NCBI GenBank assembly: GCA_043803405.1
Contig: JAZDKB010000009.1
Coordinates: forward strand, 218,265 to 282,264
Length of the DNA stretch: 64,000 bases
Direction of reading: 5' to 3'
From: Spirochaetota bacterium
GTDB taxonomy: Bacteria; Spirochaetota; UBA4802; JAFGDQ01
Numbering within the stretch: the stretch's first letter is position 1; each line of letters starts with the position of its first letter. Position numbers and translations under genes: made by a program. Shown here one piece after another: positions 50,204-60,989 of this stretch. A model generated the notes under the pieces. The model did no database searches and was not told where the DNA came from. It saw only the letters and a program-made list of their open reading frames with translations.

Positions 50204-50357
50204 ATTATTAAAATAATATATAAATAATTGTACCCCCTCGTCTATCTGCAATTTATATAATTGTACAACATATTTCGAATAAAATTCTTGACGCAAATAT
50301 CCGACATAATTAACATTGGCAACAGGCTGCATTGCGGCCTGTTTGAAGAGAAAAACA

Positions 50358-50933
50358 ATGCTAAACACTCTACACACTGATGTATTAGTATTAAATTCAG
50401 GCTTCATCCCTATCCGGATTACCACTGCAAGGGACGCTGTATGTCTGCTGACGGCAGATAAAGCCGTTTCCGTTCTTGAAAGCGACAGCTATGTACGCTC
50501 ACCATCAATAACCATCAGAATACCTTCTGTCATATCAATTCTCGGATACAATGATCTGCCGAAAAAGAAAGTCGTTTTTTCCAAGCTGAATATAATATAC
50601 AGGGACGATATGACATGCCAGTTCTGCAATAAAAGATTTTCGGTTAGAGACCTGACTATTGATCATGTGATACCAGGCAGCAGGTGGCAGGAAATTACAG
50701 GTAAAAGTTTAATCCATGGGTATTCCACATGGGAAAATATGGTATGCGCGTGCAGGTGGTGCAATAACAGGAAAGGAAATAAACTGCTTAAAGAACTAGG
50801 TTGGTCGCTAAAGACGATCCCTGTTGAACCGAAATATATGCCTCATATTATCCTGTCTTTTGAGAAAGCCAAAAGCAAAGGCTGGCTTCCGTTCTGCGGA
50901 TTTAACGTAAAACTTATAAAGCTTATCGCGTAA
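50358..50933 (+). CDS. HNH endonuclease (McrA-like)
   Basis: VLVLN, PSVI, RD..TCQFC, LTIDHVIP, WENMVCAC..CNNRKG. Confidence 0.9.
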   Translation: MLNTLHTDVLVLNSGFIPIRITTARDAVCLLTADKAVSVLESDSYVRSPSITIRIPSVISILGYNDLPKKKVVFSKLNIIYRDDMTCQFCNKRFSVRDLTIDHVIPGSRWQEITGKSLIHGYSTWENMVCACRWCNNRKGNKLLKELGWSLKTIPVEPKYMPHIILSFEKAKSKGWLPFCGFNVKLIKLIA

Positions 50934-51360: not shown

Positions 51361-52362
51361 ATGAATGATCAATTGACTGAATCACGCGCATTTAAAATTC
51401 CAAATGACGCAAATCTGCTGGAAAGGATGAGGCTTAATATCCGCACAATGCATTACAGTTATAGAACGGAAACGACGTATGTGCACTGGATAAAGCGCTT
51501 TATACTTTACCACAATAAAAGACATCCGAAAGATATGGCAGATAAAGAGATCGCTGAATTTTTAACGCATCTTGCAGTAGATGGCAAGGTATCGGCCTCA
51601 ACTCAGAACCAGGCTATGTGCGCTATTATCTTCCTTTATAAACACATTATTCAAAAAGATATTGGGGAGATAAGCGGATTTGTGTGGGCCAAAAAGCCGA
51701 AAAAAATACCTGTGGTGTTTACCCGCAATGAAGTAAAATCAGTTCTCGGAGAATTATCCGGCAATTACAGGATAATGGCAAGCATGCTTTACGGCGCCGG
51801 GCTGCGGCTGATGGAATGCCTGCGGCTGCGTGTTATGGATATTGTATTTGAAAATTCGCAATTATTTGTGCGCGACGGCAAAGGGCAAAAAGACAGGGTA
51901 ACGCCCTTGCCGGAAATAATTAAGGCTGATTTAAAGAAGCATTTGATTAAAATAAAAGAGCTGCACAACAAAGATTTGAAAGAAGGCTTTGGGGAGGTTT
52001 ATCTTCCATTTGCACTTGAAAGGAAATATCCGAACGCAAAGAAAGAATGGGCATGGCAATATGTGTTCCCTTCATCCAGAATATCCGCGGACCCGAAAAC
52101 CGGAATTATGCGCAGGCATCACCTTGACGAGAGCGTTTTGCAGAAAGCGGTAAAGACTGCAATTATAAAAGCAGGAGTACACAAACATGCCGGCTGTCAT
52201 ACATTCCGGCATTCGTTTGCAACTCATTTACTGGAGGATGGCTATAATATACGCACTGTTCAGGATTTAATGGGTCACGAGGATTTGAATACGACTATGA
52301 TTTATACTCATGTTATGGATAAAGGAATAAACAGGGTTAAAAGCCCGGCAGATAAATTATAA
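51361..52362 (+). CDS. intI: integron integrase (tyrosine recombinase)
   Basis: HYSYRTE.TY..WI, VSASTQNQA, LYGAGLR, GKG.KDR, integron-specific insert VYLPFALERKYPNA..EW.WQYVFPS, HTFRHSFATHLL, MGH, TTMIYTH. Confidence 0.97.
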   Translation: MNDQLTESRAFKIPNDANLLERMRLNIRTMHYSYRTETTYVHWIKRFILYHNKRHPKDMADKEIAEFLTHLAVDGKVSASTQNQAMCAIIFLYKHIIQKDIGEISGFVWAKKPKKIPVVFTRNEVKSVLGELSGNYRIMASMLYGAGLRLMECLRLRVMDIVFENSQLFVRDGKGQKDRVTPLPEIIKADLKKHLIKIKELHNKDLKEGFGEVYLPFALERKYPNAKKEWAWQYVFPSSRISADPKTGIMRRHHLDESVLQKAVKTAIIKAGVHKHAGCHTFRHSFATHLLEDGYNIRTVQDLMGHEDLNTTMIYTHVMDKGINRVKSPADKL

Positions 52363-52369
52363 AATAATT

Positions 52370-52753
52370 ATGAAAATTAAAAGAAAACTAATACCCGGAG
52401 AACCGGGAACAAAGCGCTGGGTTGAAAAGTTCGGCAAAGATTTATTATGCATACGGTACAGATATGATGAGAATCAAAATATTAAATTAACTACTGCTGA
52501 AATAATAGTAAATAAAAATACCTGGGAACGAAATTCCAAAAAAATTCCCCCAAATAAGAAAATGAATATCCGTATTAATTATGAAGAGTCCAGGCTGGCA
52601 GGCATAGTTAAAGCAGCAGGCGGAAGATGGAACAGGCAAAAAAAGCTATGGGAACTTGCCTATAAAGAAGTATTAGCTCTTGGACTTGAAAAAAGGATTG
52701 TAAAATTATCTGATAAAAATAATAAATTCAATAATAAGACAGTAAATTTTTAA
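52370..52753 (+). CDS. basic 127-aa hypothetical protein immediately downstream of intI
   Basis: 7-bp gap after the intI stop; PGEPGTK...L.C.RYRYD and VKAAGGRWN...KLWEL motifs. Confidence 0.8.
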   Translation: MKIKRKLIPGEPGTKRWVEKFGKDLLCIRYRYDENQNIKLTTAEIIVNKNTWERNSKKIPPNKKMNIRINYEESRLAGIVKAAGGRWNRQKKLWELAYKEVLALGLEKRIVKLSDKNNKFNNKTVNF

Positions 52754-52754
52754 T

Positions 52755-52846
52755 ATGTCTATATTTAGACATTCTTTTGTGTCTAATACTAGACATTAGC
52801 ATTAGACATGTCTATGTTTAGACATTTTATGTCTATATATATACAT
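52755..52846. repeat. array of TGTCTA-N4-TAGACA palindromes upstream of attI
   Basis: Copies at 52756, 52780 and 52809, a degenerate copy at 52830, and an extra half-site TAGACA at 52803. Confidence 0.85.
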
Positions 52847-52863: not shown

Positions 52864-52886
52864 TGCAGTATAAGAATATGTTAGGC
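52864..52886 (+). other. putative attI (core G/TTAGGC at 52880-52886)
   Basis: First GTTRRRY after intI; exact complement of GCCTAAC (58685) at the far end of cassette 1; no attC hairpin upstream. Confidence 0.75.
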
Positions 52887-52944: not shown

Positions 52945-55900
52945 ATGTCCTTAAACACAGCACATGAAGGATACGAGTATCAGGATTTATTAACAGCGTA
53001 TTTCATTCTTGATTGGATTCTTGAGGATGTTGAAAGCACTTTCTATATTGATAAAAAAGAATATGATTCTGATAAATTTGATGACTTAACAATTAAGAAT
53101 GATAAAGGTTCCTTTAAAAGACAAATAAAATATAGCAATCTGGAAAGTAACCATTCATTAACAAAAAAGGATTTATCTACAGATAGCTCATATAATTTAG
53201 CAATTGATGAATTATTTACATCATGGCATAATTACCCAGATAAAAATAGTTTAGATGTTAGACTCTGTTTAGCTTGGAATGAACCTGAAGATGATTTATT
53301 AGATGTATTAGAAATAGCTTCGAAGCAAAAAACATTTATTAATCATAACACCTTTCTACATAAAATAAACCCTCATAAATTATGGCCAGAAAATCAAAAA
53401 CCTATTGATACTTGGAGAAGATTCAAAGCTAAATCTGAAAACATTAACCGAGATGATTTTATTGGCTTTTGCAATGTTTTTCTAATTGAAACAAATTTTC
53501 CTAAATTTAGTTTAAATATTGATGAACCAGATAAATTAGAAAAAATTATTTTAGATCAGGTAGACCGTTTAGGCATTGGTATTTTCCCGAACAATAAAAG
53601 AAGTAAAGAGGAGTTTATTCTTTCATTAACTTCCTTAATAAGGAATTCAAGAAGTAAAGGAACTCCCATTACTACTAAAGATATTTTTAAACGATTTGAA
53701 ATAGTCACTGATTTTGGTTCTATTGAGCAAAATTTTCCAATTGATGAAAGTAAAAATATACTTCTTCATGAAAATATCTCATCTTTTATTCAAATAATTA
53801 AACTTAATAAAAAAATAATATTAACAGGAGAACCGGGTAGTGGCAAATCTTGGTTTATTAATAATCTAATTAATGAACTTAAATCAAACAATATCAATGT
53901 AATCCGTCATTATTGTTACACTGACCTTCAAGATAAATTTCAAAAAGATAGAATTCGGAGAGACATTTTTTATGGCAATCTTATTTCTGATACTCTTGCT
54001 TTATATCCTGATCTAATAAGGAAAAAACAGCAAAGATATGCAAGTAACCTAACCGAATTAAATCTGCTAATAAATAATATTGATGAACCAACTATATTGA
54101 TAATTGATGGTCTTGACCATATTCAAAGAATTTTTAATTATAGGCCATATCATGATCTTACTTTAAGTGATATAGATATAGTTAATGAAATAAATAATAT
54201 TAACACTTCTGAAAATTTATTTATCATTGTAGCATCACAACCAATTCAAGAATTAGAAAATATAAAAGAATTTTTTCAAATTTCTTTGCCTTCTTGGACT
54301 ATTGATAATGTAAAAGATTTAATGATTAAACTTTTTCTTGATGATTTGGAGATAGATGAACAAGTTTTATCTGATGTTTTATTTGAAAAAAGTTCTGGGA
54401 ATCCATTATATTTAACATATTTAATTCAGGAACTGAAAACAAAACCTGAAATTACTTTAGATATAATTAATACCCTTCCACCATACTCATATAATTTAAT
54501 AGAATATTATAATTATCTATTATCAAAACTTAATTTAAAAGAAAATGTCCCATTAGTTTTATCAGCAGTTAATTTCAATCTTACAAAACATGAATTAAAA
54601 CAAATTACAGGTCTTGGGGATTTTGTAGATGAATCTTTAAATTTATTAAAACCAGTATTAAAGCAAAATAAAACAAGTAGTGGTTATAGTATTTATCATG
54701 AAAGTTTTCGAAGATTTATTATAGAATATTTAAAATCAAAAGATATTATTGAAGAAAAAATATTTAGACCAGTAATTGACTGGCTTGAAAGTTTAGATTT
54801 TTATACATACCCCAAAGCATATCGATATTATTTACAGTTATTAATAGATAGTGGTGATTCTTTAAAACCTTTAAAATTTATCTCAAAAGATTTTATAAAA
54901 AATTGTGTATATTTTGGACATCCCTGGGAAATTATTGAGAACAATTATTATTTTTTAACCGTAGCTGGGACAGAGTCAGAAGATATTGAAAAAATTATCC
55001 TTCTTAATGAAATAAACAAAACTTTAATAGGGATAAAGGAAGAATATAATGATTATTTTTTATTTTATATTGAAGCATTCGGGCACAATAAAGATTTTGA
55101 ATCTGTTGCGAATTTCTTAGTATTTGAAGGCAATCCTACTTTAGAAAAAAAGCAAGGAATAAGAGTTTGTTATTTAATAGATTCAAATAATAAAGTAGCT
55201 CCTTGGGAATATTATTCTGATTATTTTAAGGAGGGCGAATCTATTGAGTTGGATGATTTCAAATATTATGTTCGGCTATTACTAGTTCAAAATGAAAAAG
55301 AGGCATTAAAAAATATTGCTAAAAATATCAAATCAGGAAATTTAAATGATTTTAGAACCATTTATAAAAATGAATTATCTCGGTATCAAAACATTGATTT
55401 TGTTAATGAATTAAAAAATGAAAATACTATTGTAAATGAATTAATTACTGATGAGATAAATAAAGAGGTTGATAAACAAGATTTAATAAAATTAGCAGAA
55501 GAAATTTTATCTTTTGAAAATGTATTTGATACAGAAGTACCTAAAATTCAAAACTTTTTTAAACAGATTGTAAATCAAATTATAGATAATGATACCATCT
55601 CTAAAGTAATATCGCTATTTTCTGGAATTAATTGGTTTTACAATTGGCTAATTTATTATATTAAGATTCAACAAATTAAATCATCTCAAATAATAAATTC
55701 GGATAAACTCAGATCAGCTTTTGACTTCTTAGCATACAAGACAGAACCGTTTGAGGGTAAGCCAAGAACTTGCGATTTATATTCATTAAATACTTTTATT
55801 TACAACTCATTAAATGATGGACTTTCTTTAATTAAAGATAAAAACGACTGGGAATATATTTTAAAAATATTAGAAAAGGTTAGCACTGAGACAACAACTT

Positions 55901-58602
55901 ATCTATCAAAGTCACCTGGTGGACCAATAGCAACATATAACTTTTTTAAACTTCTTGTTGAAAGCATTAATGAATATAATGCAACTATAGTTAATAAAAT
56001 ATTAGAGAAACAATATGAGGATAAAAAAAGTGATCAGTTTCATGCATATCTTTCTGAATATTGTTTTCAACTAGTCAAAACCTTTGCTTTCATAAATAAT
56101 ATAGAAAAAAGCGACTTTTATTTTAAACTCGGAGTCGATTATTTAGTTGGATATACTTGGCGTCGCGATTTAACCATAGAAGACTTAACTGAAAGTATTG
56201 CTAATTTACATCTTATTAATAATACGCTTGGAAACGAATATATACTAAAGTTGAAAGATTTAGTAGATGCAGTTGTTGAACATACTGATGGAAAGGATAC
56301 AAGGCATTTCCCAATTGAATGGTTTGAGAAATTTTATAGTATAAATCCTGAAAGTGCTTCTCGTTATCTTCTAAAAGAATTGGTCGAGACAAGATGCGAT
56401 TGGAGACTTGAATCATCATTACAGCATTTAATAATGCAATTAAACGTTAAAATTGACTCATTAACTAAATCCTTTCTTAATCAAACATTTTTAATTGAAT
56501 CAGCTGATTCATTCTTACTAGATTCGTTAAGATTATTTGACGAATTAGCTAACCCAACTGCTAAACATACTTTAATTGCTTCAATCGAAGCTAGAATATT
56601 AATAAAACAAAGTTCTGGATATTCTAAAGAACTTCAGAGAGAGCTTTTAAAGCATTCAAAAGAACTAAATTTAGCAGAAGATTATTTTTCTATTCATTCA
56701 ATAATAAATAATAAAAAGACTAATTCTATAAATTTAATAGAAAAGTTAAAAAAAGAATGCATTACTCGAAAGTCGTTCTCCGAAATGAGTACTTCTGAAT
56801 TATTAACGTATTTAAAAGACAATTCAGTTTCAGAAAGAGAAATTCAGTCGTTGGTATATGTATTTGATAATTTTCAAACTTTAAACATTGAATTAAAAGA
56901 TTTAATAAAACATTTAATAATTAAGAATGAAAAATATCCCAACGAAATAAAAATAGATTTAACACCTATATTTATTACTGAAACTGATGTATCAATATAT
57001 TTCTGGATAACTCGATTTATTTATCAAAAGAGTGGATGGCTTGAGAGTCTATTTAATATTGATGCATTTAAAACCGCTTATAAGATTAATCCTGAAAAAA
57101 GTTTAAAATATTTATTTGAGTTATTACCTGATAGTTTGAATTTAGGATATACTCGTACATTTTCTGCCAATTTATTTAATGCCTTATCAAGTGTTGGTTA
57201 TAATTCTTCAATACTTATTAAAGCATGGCTTTCTATGTATGAAATTATTGAATCAAGACTTCCATCAAGGGATATATATAATTGGGAAGCAGCATTTTCA
57301 GATGAATTAGGCATGAATTTAGATGAAATACATATCTGCCTTTTAATATGTAGATTTAAATCTTATACAGTCCAAAAATTTCAGATTGTTTTAACCGGTA
57401 TTGCAATTCTATTGTATAGTGATTCACAAAAACTAATAAAACCGTTAAAATGGTTTTTTAGAAATCATGAGTACTTTAAAAAGTCCATAATCCTGGTAAT
57501 TATAGAATTATTATCATTACACGAAGAAAAAAATGTTGGTTATGTAAAAAATTTTGAATCAGAGCTAAGAAATATTTATCCAACAGAGTATTTCTTAATT
57601 GATTATTTAATAGAATCATTATTTAACTTATCCAATCGTTTAAAAATAAAATTAAATAACGAATTAATATACCCTATTCCGGATGAAGAGGCAGATTTTT
57701 TCTTAAGATTAAATTATCGGCATCGCATCTTAGAAAGAAAGGGATTAAACATTAATAATATCTTTGGGAAATTTAAGGCGACATTTTCTAGAAAGTATAA
57801 AGAAGCTCTTGATCTGTATGGGAATAGAATGCGTGAGTGGTCAGTAAATAACCTTTATTTTTCAGACTATTTACTTGAATTGATTAATGAAGATTTCTAT
57901 AATGCTTTTAAAAGTTATCCTGATTCTAATTTAGTTTATAATGACATTAAGATCGATATTAAAACTATAATTGCTCAGTATTTATCTTTAAATACTAGGC
58001 CTAAAGATTTAAAAAAATATTCAGAATATGAGGGAAATGGTTTATATACTTCCACTTCAGAAATCTCAATTAATGAAGGATGGGTAAGAATAGGTCATTT
58101 TGAAAATGAATTAGTTGAAAAAGAACATTATAAACTCGAAAACTATAAAATATTTGGTGGAATAACTTTTAATTCTGATAATAAACCAATTTTTCCATTC
58201 TCTACTTATCGTTTGGACATGCCTAAAATATGGGAAAATATTTACCCTGATTATGAAAATCAAGAAACAATTGTATTTTCCTTAATTCAAAAGCAATTTC
58301 AATTTGAAGATTTCAAAATACTTTGGTTAAATCCTATTTTAGTTTCTAACTTTAAACTTAATGTTTGCAATTTTTTGTCAGGCTTACGGGCCACTAACGA
58401 TAATGGAGAAATTATTTTAAAATTTAATTCATGGTATACTAGCTATATTGCTTCCGATCGTATGGATGATATTATACAAGAAATACCAAAATTAGATGGT
58501 TCTGAATTATTAATACGCGAAGATTACTTTAAGAAAATTTGTGATTTATATAGTGTATCCCCTAAATATTGTATTATGCGTACGTTTAAAAATTCATCAT
58601 AA
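52945..58602 (+). CDS. cassette 1: PD-(D/E)xK nuclease + STAND NTPase + long helical sensor region (Avs/AVAST-like antiphage protein)
   Basis: GYEYQD...FDD...QIK nuclease motif, Walker A GEPGSGKS, Walker B LIIDGLD, GNPLYL; 1885 aa; AT-rich. Confidence 0.8.
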   Translation: MSLNTAHEGYEYQDLLTAYFILDWILEDVESTFYIDKKEYDSDKFDDLTIKNDKGSFKRQIKYSNLESNHSLTKKDLSTDSSYNLAIDELFTSWHNYPDKNSLDVRLCLAWNEPEDDLLDVLEIASKQKTFINHNTFLHKINPHKLWPENQKPIDTWRRFKAKSENINRDDFIGFCNVFLIETNFPKFSLNIDEPDKLEKIILDQVDRLGIGIFPNNKRSKEEFILSLTSLIRNSRSKGTPITTKDIFKRFEIVTDFGSIEQNFPIDESKNILLHENISSFIQIIKLNKKIILTGEPGSGKSWFINNLINELKSNNINVIRHYCYTDLQDKFQKDRIRRDIFYGNLISDTLALYPDLIRKKQQRYASNLTELNLLINNIDEPTILIIDGLDHIQRIFNYRPYHDLTLSDIDIVNEINNINTSENLFIIVASQPIQELENIKEFFQISLPSWTIDNVKDLMIKLFLDDLEIDEQVLSDVLFEKSSGNPLYLTYLIQELKTKPEITLDIINTLPPYSYNLIEYYNYLLSKLNLKENVPLVLSAVNFNLTKHELKQITGLGDFVDESLNLLKPVLKQNKTSSGYSIYHESFRRFIIEYLKSKDIIEEKIFRPVIDWLESLDFYTYPKAYRYYLQLLIDSGDSLKPLKFISKDFIKNCVYFGHPWEIIENNYYFLTVAGTESEDIEKIILLNEINKTLIGIKEEYNDYFLFYIEAFGHNKDFESVANFLVFEGNPTLEKKQGIRVCYLIDSNNKVAPWEYYSDYFKEGESIELDDFKYYVRLLLVQNEKEALKNIAKNIKSGNLNDFRTIYKNELSRYQNIDFVNELKNENTIVNELITDEINKEVDKQDLIKLAEEILSFENVFDTEVPKIQNFFKQIVNQIIDNDTISKVISLFSGINWFYNWLIYYIKIQQIKSSQIINSDKLRSAFDFLAYKTEPFEGKPRTCDLYSLNTFIYNSLNDGLSLIKDKNDWEYILKILEKVSTETTTYLSKSPGGPIATYNFFKLLVESINEYNATIVNKILEKQYEDKKSDQFHAYLSEYCFQLVKTFAFINNIEKSDFYFKLGVDYLVGYTWRRDLTIEDLTESIANLHLINNTLGNEYILKLKDLVDAVVEHTDGKDTRHFPIEWFEKFYSINPESASRYLLKELVETRCDWRLESSLQHLIMQLNVKIDSLTKSFLNQTFLIESADSFLLDSLRLFDELANPTAKHTLIASIEARILIKQSSGYSKELQRELLKHSKELNLAEDYFSIHSIINNKKTNSINLIEKLKKECITRKSFSEMSTSELLTYLKDNSVSEREIQSLVYVFDNFQTLNIELKDLIKHLIIKNEKYPNEIKIDLTPIFITETDVSIYFWITRFIYQKSGWLESLFNIDAFKTAYKINPEKSLKYLFELLPDSLNLGYTRTFSANLFNALSSVGYNSSILIKAWLSMYEIIESRLPSRDIYNWEAAFSDELGMNLDEIHICLLICRFKSYTVQKFQIVLTGIAILLYSDSQKLIKPLKWFFRNHEYFKKSIILVIIELLSLHEEKNVGYVKNFESELRNIYPTEYFLIDYLIESLFNLSNRLKIKLNNELIYPIPDEEADFFLRLNYRHRILERKGLNINNIFGKFKATFSRKYKEALDLYGNRMREWSVNNLYFSDYLLELINEDFYNAFKSYPDSNLVYNDIKIDIKTIIAQYLSLNTRPKDLKKYSEYEGNGLYTSTSEISINEGWVRIGHFENELVEKEHYKLENYKIFGGITFNSDNKPIFPFSTYRLDMPKIWENIYPDYENQETIVFSLIQKQFQFEDFKILWLNPILVSNFKLNVCNFLSGLRATNDNGEIILKFNSWYTSYIASDRMDDIIQEIPKLDGSELLIREDYFKKICDLYSVSPKYCIMRTFKNSS

Positions 58603-58684: not shown

Positions 58685-58706
58685 GCCTAACAATAAAATC
58701 GAGCCA
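58685..58706 (+). other. attC1 left arm (R''/L''), interrupted by the intron
   Basis: GCCTAAC AATAAAATCGAGCCA pairs with the arm at 60886-60989 once the intron is removed. Confidence 0.8.
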
Positions 58707-60885
58707 TTGAGCCATGAGTCGTTTAGAGTCAATTGTTAACCCTGCGAGAGCAGAGAGTTAACCTGTCGTACTGCCGACAGTTTCTCACCTGCCGAGAGGC
58801 AGTGCAATGTAGCCCTTGCCCGATATAATCGGACAAAAGAGCGAAGCGCGAGCGGAACTCAATTCCCGTTAGTACCATACGGGAGGGGAGCTAAGAATGA
58901 TGATACGGTTAAGATATATGAATTGCCGATAAACGCCGTTAATTTTAACAAGCGAAAGGATACTGAATGCTTAAAAGCATAAACGCTTGAACCAAAAGGT
59001 AAGGGGTATGGATGGGATGGTGGGCTTTCGTCCTACGCAGACAACAATTCCCCCGGCGAACAGGTAGAACCTAAGTCATCAAGTTGAGTTAAAGGACTAT
59101 GGAAACCCCGACTGCCTCCACAGGAAGTGGAAAGCGAGCAGTAATGCGAGCCGATAGGCAAGCGGAGGAAGTGATGTCGGAAAAAGCGAAAGCCGTTCTG
59201 TAATGGAGCGGATACGGGTTCAAGATTTGCCCGACTCGAAAGAGGGCAGACATCCGACGGGTGCTGGATCACGGGAGAGATTTTGGAAAAGATGAAATCG
59301 GAAAGGCGTGGATAGACGATGGTTGGAATACTGACCATTGACAGCCCAAAGAGCGATAGTGAGTGCTGGAAACATATTGACTGGAAGAAAGCGGAAGCTA
59401 TTGTTAATCGGATTCAAGTCAGGATCGTGAAGGCAATCAAGGCAGGGAACAAGAATAAAGTACGTAGCTTACAGCGACTCCTTGCCAGATCATTTGCAGC
59501 AAAGTTAAAAGCTGTTAAGCGAATAATATCAAATCGTGGAAGAAATACAGCGGGAGTAGACGGAGTAAAGTGGAACACACCCGCGAAACGTTGGAAAGCA
59601 GTCGAAGAGATAAATCGTAAGGACTACAAGCCGCAGCCCTTAAAACGTAAATATATACCGAAGTCAAATGGCAAGAAACGACCTTTAAGTATACCTGTTA
59701 TGGCAGACCGGGCAGAACAGGCACTTGAACAATCAGGGCTTGATCCGATAAGCGAATACACAGCGGATAAACATTCATATGGTTTTCGCAAGAAACGGTC
59801 AGTACATGACGCGATCGGCGCTTGTTACAATGCCTTAAGAAAGAAAGGAAGCGCAGACTGGATACTTGAAGGAGATATAAAAGGCTGTTTTGACAATTTT
59901 GATCATCAGTGGATGCTGGAAAATATCCCGATGAACAAGAACAAATTAAGGATGTGGCTTAAAGCCGGATACATGGAAGAAGGGAGTTATTACCCTACTC
60001 CAACAGGAACGCCGCAAGGAGGAATAATATCACCGATACTGGCGAACATGGTTTTAGATGGACTGGAAACTTTTTTAGCAAAGCATTTCAAAAAGAGAGA
60101 TAAAGTACACTTTATCAGGTTTGCCGATGACTTTGTTATCACAGGTGCAACTAAAAGAATTTTGGAAGATAAAGTCATGCCATTGGTGAAGGAATTCCTA
60201 AGAGTACGCGGGCTTGAATTATCAGAAACGAAAACGAAGATATCACATATAAATGATGGATTCGATTTTCTTGGATTCTCTGTTAAGAAATACAAAGGGA
60301 AACTTTTGATAAAACCGGCAAAGTCTAAAGTAGACGGGTTTATTGAAAAGATCAGACAAATAATAAAGTCTAACAAAAGTGTAAAGACCCGGAGTCTGAT
60401 CTATCAGTTAAATCCAGTAATACGAGGATGGGGATATTTCTATCGGCACGTGGTAAGCAGTCAAATATTTGGTGAACTGGATCATCGGATATGGGAAACC
60501 ACATGGCAATGGGCAAAGAGAAGACATCCGAACAAAGGTAAACAGTGGATCAAACGGAAATATTACCAGCATGAAGGAAACAGAAACTGGATTTTCCGTG
60601 AGAAGAATGACAAGATGAGTCTTCTCTTACTGTCGAAAATTCACATCATCCGACATGTTAAGATACAATCCAACGCCAATCCTTATGATCCGGATTGGGA
60701 CGAATATTTCAAGAGTAGATCTCTGAGACAGAAAGGAATCTTCGATCAGAGACTAGCGACAGCGATTTGATAAGATTGCCGGGTGTTTAACGATGCCTTA
60801 GCCAGGGCTTGAGCCGTACCTTTGGAAACAAGGTTGTACGGTTCTTAGGGGGCGACGGTGCGGTAACGCACCTGACCTACCCGGA
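58707..60885 (+). mobile_element. group II intron (IIB, CL-type RT without En domain) inserted in attC1; boundaries may be off by 1 nt
   Basis: Domain V GAGCCGTAC-CTTTG-GAAA-CAAGG-TT-GTACGGTTC (60811-60844); domain VI with bulged A at 60879; RT ORF inside; removal restores an attC. Confidence 0.88.
59319..60770 (+). CDS. ltrA: group II intron reverse transcriptase/maturase
   Basis: RVT_N-type WKHIDW...R.Q.RI.KA, IPK.NGK.RPL.IP, EGDIKGCFD, GTPQGGIISP, RFADDF, GFDFLG, X domain LNPVIRGW; no HNH. Confidence 0.93.
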   Translation: MVGILTIDSPKSDSECWKHIDWKKAEAIVNRIQVRIVKAIKAGNKNKVRSLQRLLARSFAAKLKAVKRIISNRGRNTAGVDGVKWNTPAKRWKAVEEINRKDYKPQPLKRKYIPKSNGKKRPLSIPVMADRAEQALEQSGLDPISEYTADKHSYGFRKKRSVHDAIGACYNALRKKGSADWILEGDIKGCFDNFDHQWMLENIPMNKNKLRMWLKAGYMEEGSYYPTPTGTPQGGIISPILANMVLDGLETFLAKHFKKRDKVHFIRFADDFVITGATKRILEDKVMPLVKEFLRVRGLELSETKTKISHINDGFDFLGFSVKKYKGKLLIKPAKSKVDGFIEKIRQIIKSNKSVKTRSLIYQLNPVIRGWGYFYRHVVSSQIFGELDHRIWETTWQWAKRRHPNKGKQWIKRKYYQHEGNRNWIFREKNDKMSLLLLSKIHIIRHVKIQSNANPYDPDWDEYFKSRSLRQKGIFDQRLATAI

Positions 60886-60989
60886 GATGCGAACCGCAAT
60901 CAAGCGACATTTTTATTGTGCCCCTAATATCGCGCTCAATTTTTCGGAAGTCGGCGTCGCGGTTCGCACTGCTCATTTTGTCGTTAGAA
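60886..60989 (+). other. attC1 remainder, ending in R' GTTAGAA
   Basis: TGCGAACCGC...GCGGTTCGCA CTG CTC ATTTT GTC GTTAGAA. Confidence 0.8.

Follow-up and report, generated by a model that had tools for sequence, protein, structure and literature searches.

A group IIB intron with a CL1-type reverse transcriptase (RT) lies in the first attC of an integron cassette array and belongs to a lineage that very probably (about 85%) homes to the left arm of attC sites through pairing of its guides with the target. The lineage is characterised by its class, by its position and orientation in attC, by a fixed insertion register and by covariation between its EBS guides and the IBS sequences of the exons. 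The intron described here sits in the top strand, 15 nt past R″, and has the orientation of intI and of the cassettes, the latter as the preliminary description had it. Coordinates of the features are in Table 1.

Table 1. Positions of the integron, split attC and intron features in the window
Feature	Position	Strand	Basis or remark
IntI integron integrase	51361..52362	+	TIGR02249, 453.6 bits (cut-off 265); same direction as array
Core site GTTAGGC, start of cassette 1	52880..52886	+	read from sequence
Cassette 1 gene, 1885-aa STAND-type NTPase	52945..58602	+	Pfam AAA_22/NACHT-like matches
5′ exon, 5′ part of attC	58685..58706	+	R″ GCCTAAC, spacer, start of L″
IBS2 TAAAAT (-13 to -8)	58694..58699	+	
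Group IIB intron with CL1-type RT, 2179 nt	58707..60885	+	RF02012, homolog alignment, trees
Short hairpin with GAGA cap, where homologs have a longer IC1 stem	58789..58802	+	alignment, fold
EBS2 loop	58941..58947	+	AATTTT, homologous register, 4/6; ATTTTA, one base on, 6/6
EBS1 GGGCTT, stem-loop	59022..59027	+	homologous loop position
EBS3 C, pairs with +1 G	59038	+	homologous column
RT/maturase, intact, 483 aa, FADD motif	59319..60770	+	TIGR04416 above cut-off; Pfam RVT_N, RVT_1, GIIM
Domain V (AGC triad, 34 nt, UU bulge) and domain VI	60811..60885	+	fold, z -3.6
3′ exon, 3′ part of attC	60886..60989	+	remainder of L″, variable centre, L′, R′ GTTAGAA

The integron and the split attC

The window, i.e., the whole 64-kb stretch of DNA that was analysed, ends in an integron: intI adjoins an array of four plus-strand open reading frames (ORFs) with attC-like palindromes between them. 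The GTTAGGC core site at 52880 exactly matches the complement of the R″ of cassette 1 and is likely the attI junction. A 127-aa ORF of no known family is found 3′ of intI (in the region 51361-52753), TAGAC motifs are repeated at 52770-52840 and may be part of attI, and an HNH endonuclease ORF (50316-50933) lies directly upstream of intI. The gene of cassette 1 measures 5.7 kb, which is very large for a cassette. The NTPase that it encodes shows a weak match to Avs1b, far under the cut-off, and PADLOC returned no match for it; possibly it is an anti-phage or defence gene in the first position of the array.

The L″ arm is split, as had been described, and removal of the intron restores a 126-bp attC. 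The ligated exons display an R″ of the form RYYYAAC, an R′ of the form GTTRRRY, a paired L box with extrahelical bases (three bulges) and a bottom strand that folds at -25.3 kcal/mol (z -3.2), a fold equalled by 1 of 300 shuffles. The R″ AAC is at -18 to -16, the first bulge, a C, is at -7, and IBS1 is GAGCCA. Here and below, attC arms were scored with a purpose-made scorer. Intron-free attC sites of the same family are found in related genomes (8 of 122 genomes matched, the source genome included). They agree with the window site in inter-bulge spacing and in the arm, several of them also in the third bulge, and thus nothing was duplicated or lost at insertion.

Another origin of the exon sequence was considered and rejected. 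Rewriting by the intron of its own 5′ exon, with an extra IBS1 base, is ruled out by the third bulge in intron-free sites and by the nature of the odd IBS1 ATTGTG, which represents the first bases of another intron. A search for further copies and empty sites, which the preliminary description had proposed, was negative on both counts: the intron's own assembly holds no other full copy, the sole other copy being an ORF-less relative, and no exon-exon joint of an empty allele was detected in the contigs of four sequencing runs.

Insertion register of the homologs

Loci of homologs were gathered from metagenome, genome and viral contigs, among the matches listed, and from whole-genome searches; the DNA of the close relatives at 74-91% identity is absent from this set. 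A profile of the 5′ RNA was built from 12 seeds picked by RT identity, 3 of which are not in attC. Copies with fewer than about 430 profile positions or less than 22 nt of 5′ flank were dropped before counting. This gave 219 distinct copies, 89 of them in the clade, which was defined on the RNA tree (support 0.69). With 13 inner members of tandem arrays and one copy with a masked flank removed, 75 clade copies remain, among them one with a doubtful boundary (L374) that was kept as non-attC.

The AAC of R″ is at -18 in 61 of the 75 clade copies and at -19 in one, i.e., in 62 of 75, from 14 of 20 genomes or contigs. Among the 130 other CL1 copies, from 116 sources, AAC is at -18 in two and at -19 in five. 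Among additional, partial copies, 10 of 13 have it at -18. A matching right arm with GTT follows in 23 of the 40 clade copies that have a readable, non-intron 3′ exon and in 0 of 91 copies outside the clade; the remaining 17 of 40 show no matching right arm by the scorer used, which misses sites with other spacer lengths, and thus 23 of 40 is a lower bound. The layout of the left arm is constant: AAC, a five-base spacer, three L″ bases, the first L-box bulge at -7, six bases, and then the intron. Position +1 is the second bulge in two-bulge sites, and the base before the second bulge in three-bulge sites, the window site included. As two genomes account for 43 of the 62 sites (32 from G802, 11 from G413) and most sources belong to one class, the copies are not independent and shuffling tests on them overstate the case. 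Copy numbers are high in both genomes, with about 49 long matches in G802 and 23 DNA matches in G413, which holds L101-L103.

The 13 copies that depart from the register comprise five in domain V of a class C intron, in antisense, two in attC sites that fail the AAC rule (L271, L420), one nested in its own family and five that are elsewhere or doubtful. Six of the 20 sources have no copy in the AAC register, and in four of these (five copies) the target is the antisense class C domain V. A sub-branch (L100, L290, L295, L394, L395, L408) is found in the antisense strand of class C domain V with a matching EBS1. As to replication strand, most clusters in G413 are on the G-rich strand, one is on the other and two are ambiguous; the window copy is on the G-poor strand of its contig.

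The preliminary description inferred sequence-directed homing by an attC-adapted lineage, and named close homologs in unrelated targets as the finding that would speak against it. The closest readable homologs are mostly in the attC top strand, in the same register, and the guides covary with their targets (below). The inference is thus supported, with the qualifications that a sub-branch has moved to another target, that the union of the two RT branches with this habit is not firm, and that a co-oriented non-IIC intron at an attC has been reported before (UHB.I2, PMC7923331).

Guide pairing and the proposed mode of homing

The EBS1 put forward earlier, GGGCTT, is in the homologous loop and pairs at 5 of 6 positions with GAGCCA, with a mismatch at -1. 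The EBS2 put forward, ATTTTA (58942-58947), is present and pairs fully with TAAAAT, and its register is probably off by one, since the register of all homologs is AATTTT (58941-58946), one base upstream. Either of the two may form in this A/T-rich loop. EBS1, EBS2 and EBS3 of the CL1/IIB1 type are all present and pairing (5/6; 4/6 or, shifted, 6/6; C-G). In a 600-kb genome sample, an EBS1 match of at least 5/6 occurs at 6.0% of positions, such a match together with ATTTTA at 6/6 occurs at 0.028%, and together with AATTTT at 4/6 or better at 1.3%. Because of these chance rates the pairing of the window copy alone is moderate evidence, and it is the homologs that carry the case.

Among the homologs, EBS1 forms a mean of 5.21 of 6 pairs (38 distinct combinations, 13 EBS1 forms) versus 3.62 when shuffled, and EBS2 5.03 of 6 (37 combinations, 15 EBS2 forms) versus 3.93, values reached by 0 of 5000 shuffles in either case, with the shuffles inflated by kinship among copies. 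With one copy per genome (n = 14), the means are 5.36 versus 3.63 for EBS1 and 4.86 versus 3.56 for EBS2, again with 0 of 5000 shuffles. When the register is slid by 1-2 bases, pairing falls to 1.5-2.6. EBS3 pairs with +1 in 37 of 52 copies and is mismatched in 15.

Copies that are outside attC (L102, L274, L100) keep 6/6 EBS1 pairing. In 13 copies the arm had already been split by another intron, and EBS1 fits the first bases of that intron at the same distance from AAC; the nested variants with the EBS1 CACAAT are still 18 nt from AAC. A different family (Rfam D1D4-6) enters directly after the first L″ bulge and the clade nests in its first bases, as seen at L423 and L427 in G802 and at L284, L286 and L271 in G413.

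An alternative that is compatible with guide pairing is that attC itself is the main signal, the RT reading AAC at -18 to -16 or the folded hairpin and its bulge, much as a hairpin is read by IIC-attC introns, with the EBS adapting later. Such reading by the RT is possible because the distance to AAC is fixed across many guides, i.e., 13 EBS1 and 15 EBS2 forms; in addition the bulged base invariably falls on -7, the target in class C domain V likewise forms a hairpin and retains AC at -17/-16, and the RTs of IIA and IIB introns are described as reading distal 5′ exon bases in passages of PMC3898094. However, L102 and L274 have perfect IBS1 sequences in sites with neither AAC nor hairpin, L271 uses the usual base in an arm separated from R″ by another intron, and the site-by-site covariation exceeds what a family consensus would give. 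As the main signal, attC is a tentative and rather unlikely explanation.

Under the preferred reading, i.e., homing by guide pairing, the spliced intron RNA with its RT would reverse-splice into the top (cassette-sense) strand of attC, by a route that is established for IIB introns. EBS2 would pair with the end of the R″-L″ spacer and the first three L″ bases (-13 to -8), the first bulged base of the L box would fall on the unpaired -7, EBS1 would pair with the six bases that follow, and EBS3 with +1. This mode of guide pairing is known for EcI5 and RmInt1, according to the available passages of PMC3898094. The EBS sequences would be retuned to the attC families of each host, and because they fit these families one array offers many targets, on which copies, ORF-less ones too, may multiply. 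Transcription would come from promoters of the array, and the endonuclease-less window copy would presumably be primed at the replication fork. The split attC probably loses recombination by the integrase, which needs the folded bottom strand of attC (PMC8946536, in the part available). A 2.2-kb insert between L″ and L′ should block this folding, and cassette 1 would then be fixed to cassette 2.

Ribozyme and RT of the window copy

The intron ends, 58707 (TTGAG) and 60885 (last base A), were set by alignment to homologs and agree with two tertiary pairings: the J2/3 gamma base is a U (59172) and pairs with the terminal A, a compensated change, and the EBS3 C faces a G as first base of the 3′ exon. 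The attC restored by ligation of the exons is a third internal check on these ends. Ends shifted by one base in either direction were rejected, as pairing is then poorer and the gamma and EBS3 pairs are broken. Assignment to the group II introns is based on the RF02012 match (58762-58890), the domain V-VI fold with its catalytic triad, the homolog alignment and the TIGR04416 match of the RT/maturase ORF; in domains V and VI, the Rfam model RF00029 is under threshold. The RT has no HNH domain, which some clade members retain, and its relatives show 74-86% identity over the full length.

Several features of the ribozyme are unusual. Canonical CL1/IIB1 introns have GUGYG...AY ends and an IC1 loop with epsilon-prime, whereas this intron starts with UUGAG, ends in GGA and lacks the distal IC1. 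Its IC1 is about 30-35 nt shorter, and the missing part includes the loop that normally has epsilon-prime; homologs show YUGCG or GUGYG starts and a full IC1 stem. The deletion is spanned gap-free by contigs from two other sequencing runs, one of which crosses the 5′ junction with 32 exon bases (14 differences in 106). The ORF-less relative in the same assembly (L021:1-531, on contig G000:C2) displays 86% identity over 261 nt, its 5′ end being lost at the contig end, and has the same U gamma base and UU bulge. Its EBS1 loop is CTGCTT, there is an insertion in domain V, and a HigB/HigA-like pair and an attC-like palindrome lie beyond it. Its 3′ exon does not represent the rest of an attC. Since contigs of other runs cover the IC1 deletion and this relative shares the U gamma and the UU bulge, the odd features look like traits of a sub-lineage.

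The same features may also be read as decay, i.e., the lineage is attC-adapted and the window copy is decayed or poorly active. The absent distal IC1, the UUGAG start, the terminal A and the UU bulge of domain V would fit this, as would an RF02012 score of 53 bits (75-118 bits in homologs), the failure of RF00029, the -1 mismatch and the presence of one full copy only in its assembly. However, the ORF is intact and has relatives conserved over its full length, gamma-gamma′ pairing is kept by a compensatory change (U-A), other runs show the same IC1 deletion, and the U gamma and UU bulge recur in the ORF-less relative. Decay is a rather unlikely reading of this copy.

Arrays, mixed flanks and distribution

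Some single attC sites contain up to six ORF-less copies, each about 914 nt long, arranged head to tail (L424:5644-11130, L418:10818-14470, L422, L425 and L426 in G802; L270 in G413; L397 in G833). Such arrays would follow from repeated homing just before a copy already in place, because IBS1 and IBS2 stay intact. At L421:4541, L423:3966, L270 and L287 the two flanks of one copy belong to different attC families, a pattern that points to recombination between copies or to an assembly error.

A further proposal, which is doubtful, is that the RT anchors on the invariant AAC while the guides are retuned for each host, and that recombination between copies shuffles cassettes without the integrase and makes new attC sites. 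With near-identical copies at many attC sites, such recombination would unite the left half of a site with the right half of a different one, and the mismatched attC halves in G413 and G802 fit this reading. If true, it would be a testable route to attC diversity and to the evolution of cassette arrays.

Other elements also use attC sites. Other CL1 lineages insert in the R′ top strand (GT|TRR: L299, L319, L323, L375, L386, L391 and in G802) or after GTT.. (L403, L303, L382, L300, L302, L306, L312), and many attC sites of G802 have one intron in L″ and another in R′. An IS110-family element (Pfam DEDD_Tnp_IS110) interrupts an attC of the same family at L414:7630-11200 in G802, 3 bases upstream of the intron site.

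The clade has a patchy distribution. Matches were found in 2 of 401 genomes of the intron's own phylum, the second only weak, in 26 of 401 genomes of the class of G413 (E <= 1e-120; not all of this clade) and in 18 of 301 genomes of its order. Three wider samples (301, 121 and 191 genomes) gave the seed genome only. The best matches in viral contigs have 54% identity and do not show the pattern, those in plasmids have about 52-54% identity, and a single-protein scan of genome contigs gave no match.

The arrays of G413 and G802 are rich in mobile elements, among them other introns and the IS110-family element, and it might be supposed that the intron lands widely and survives in neutral cassette arrays; such survival accounts for neither the single fixed attC base nor the matches between EBS and L″ in 14 sources, and is very improbable.

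Class and phylogeny

Trees were made of 280 RTs (FastTree) and of 46 RTs (IQ-TREE). In the FastTree tree the window RT belongs to a group of 271 tips, which includes none of the six RTs with a class C CGC triad in their RNA. In the IQ-TREE tree, class C and two integron-borne IIC-attC references form a single clade (99.9/100). The pO157 intron (L430, 48% identity), which we take to be EcI5, class CL1, shares a clade with the window RT there (98.9/100) and falls in its large clade in the FastTree tree too. The Nostoc plasmid intron, presumably CL2, is the sister. By these comparisons the window RT is assigned to CL1 with a IIB RNA. The preliminary description, which called the RT CL-type and not class C, is thus borne out, and the grouping with class C that would have contradicted it is not seen.

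The CL1 branch that includes the window RT (100/100) also comprises L022, L023, L029, L100, L102, L104, L363, L364 and L368. A second branch (L264, L298, L420) has the same target habit and joins the first at 69/50 (IQ-TREE) and 0.975 (FastTree). L300, L302, L303 and L306, which are CL1 introns situated at the R′ end of attC, make up a branch of their own (100/100).

A class C (IIC-attC) intron in an unusual orientation has next to no probability: passages of PMC7923331 and PMC9229058 mention co-oriented class C cases, but the window intron has an AGC triad in place of CGC, a 34-nt domain V, a 6-nt EBS1 with an EBS2, a top-strand site in place of the bottom strand within R″, and an RT outside class C and inside CL1.

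Comparison with known systems and significance

The closest described case is UHB.I2, which in passages of PMC7923331 also has a CL1 protein without endonuclease, a IIB1 RNA and the cassette orientation, at an attC. However, it overlaps the last 2 attC bases (attC c7295-7364, intron c5096-7296), at the R′ end, which leaves the hairpin whole, whereas the window intron splits the L box. In the visible part of its protein, compared by eye and outside the tree, UHB.I2 has RAMQAL where the clade has RAEQAL. Its authors, in the same passages, describe one case and report that the exons of homologs are poorly conserved.

IIC-attC introns (S.ma.I2 and relatives, in the accessible part of PMC3001079; L436 and L437 here) are likewise an attC-specialised lineage with several copies across arrays. 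They differ in their class C RT, their CGC domain V (the triad is carried by L436 and L437) and their site in the bottom strand inside R″, and their guides are a short EBS1 with a hairpin instead of IBS2, in contrast to the EBS1, EBS2, EBS3 and L″ top strand of the window intron. EcI5 (E.c.I5) and RmInt1 share the EBS1/EBS2/EBS3 pairing, and RmInt1 is also endonuclease-less; in passages of PMC3898094 their targets are single sequences in genes or IS elements, whereas the clade targets a family of diverse recombination sites. IS1111-attC insertion sequences, as cited in passages of PMC9229058, are also a mobile lineage homing to attC, but have a DNA transposase and neither RT nor ribozyme.

A Shewanella survey mentions one CL1 and one class E intron in integrons, in passages that do not give their position (PMC9229058), and reviews describe three target habits of bacterial group II introns and, in the passages available, assign attC targeting to class C only (PMC4424553). 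A literature search that covered neither subscription papers on IIC-attC introns nor the figures of PMC9229058 gave no account of a CL1 lineage in the attC L box.

Thus a CL1 lineage has come to use attC through the usual guide pairing, but on the strand opposite to that of class C introns and at a different place in the site, a conclusion that is well supported at the level of the lineage. It has expanded to tens of copies per genome. Splitting of the L box should freeze the adjoining cassette, here one with a possible defence gene, and arrays in such genomes are possibly under-counted, because programs that require an uninterrupted site will miss attC sites split by these introns. As the guides covary with their targets, the targeting rule can be tested directly.
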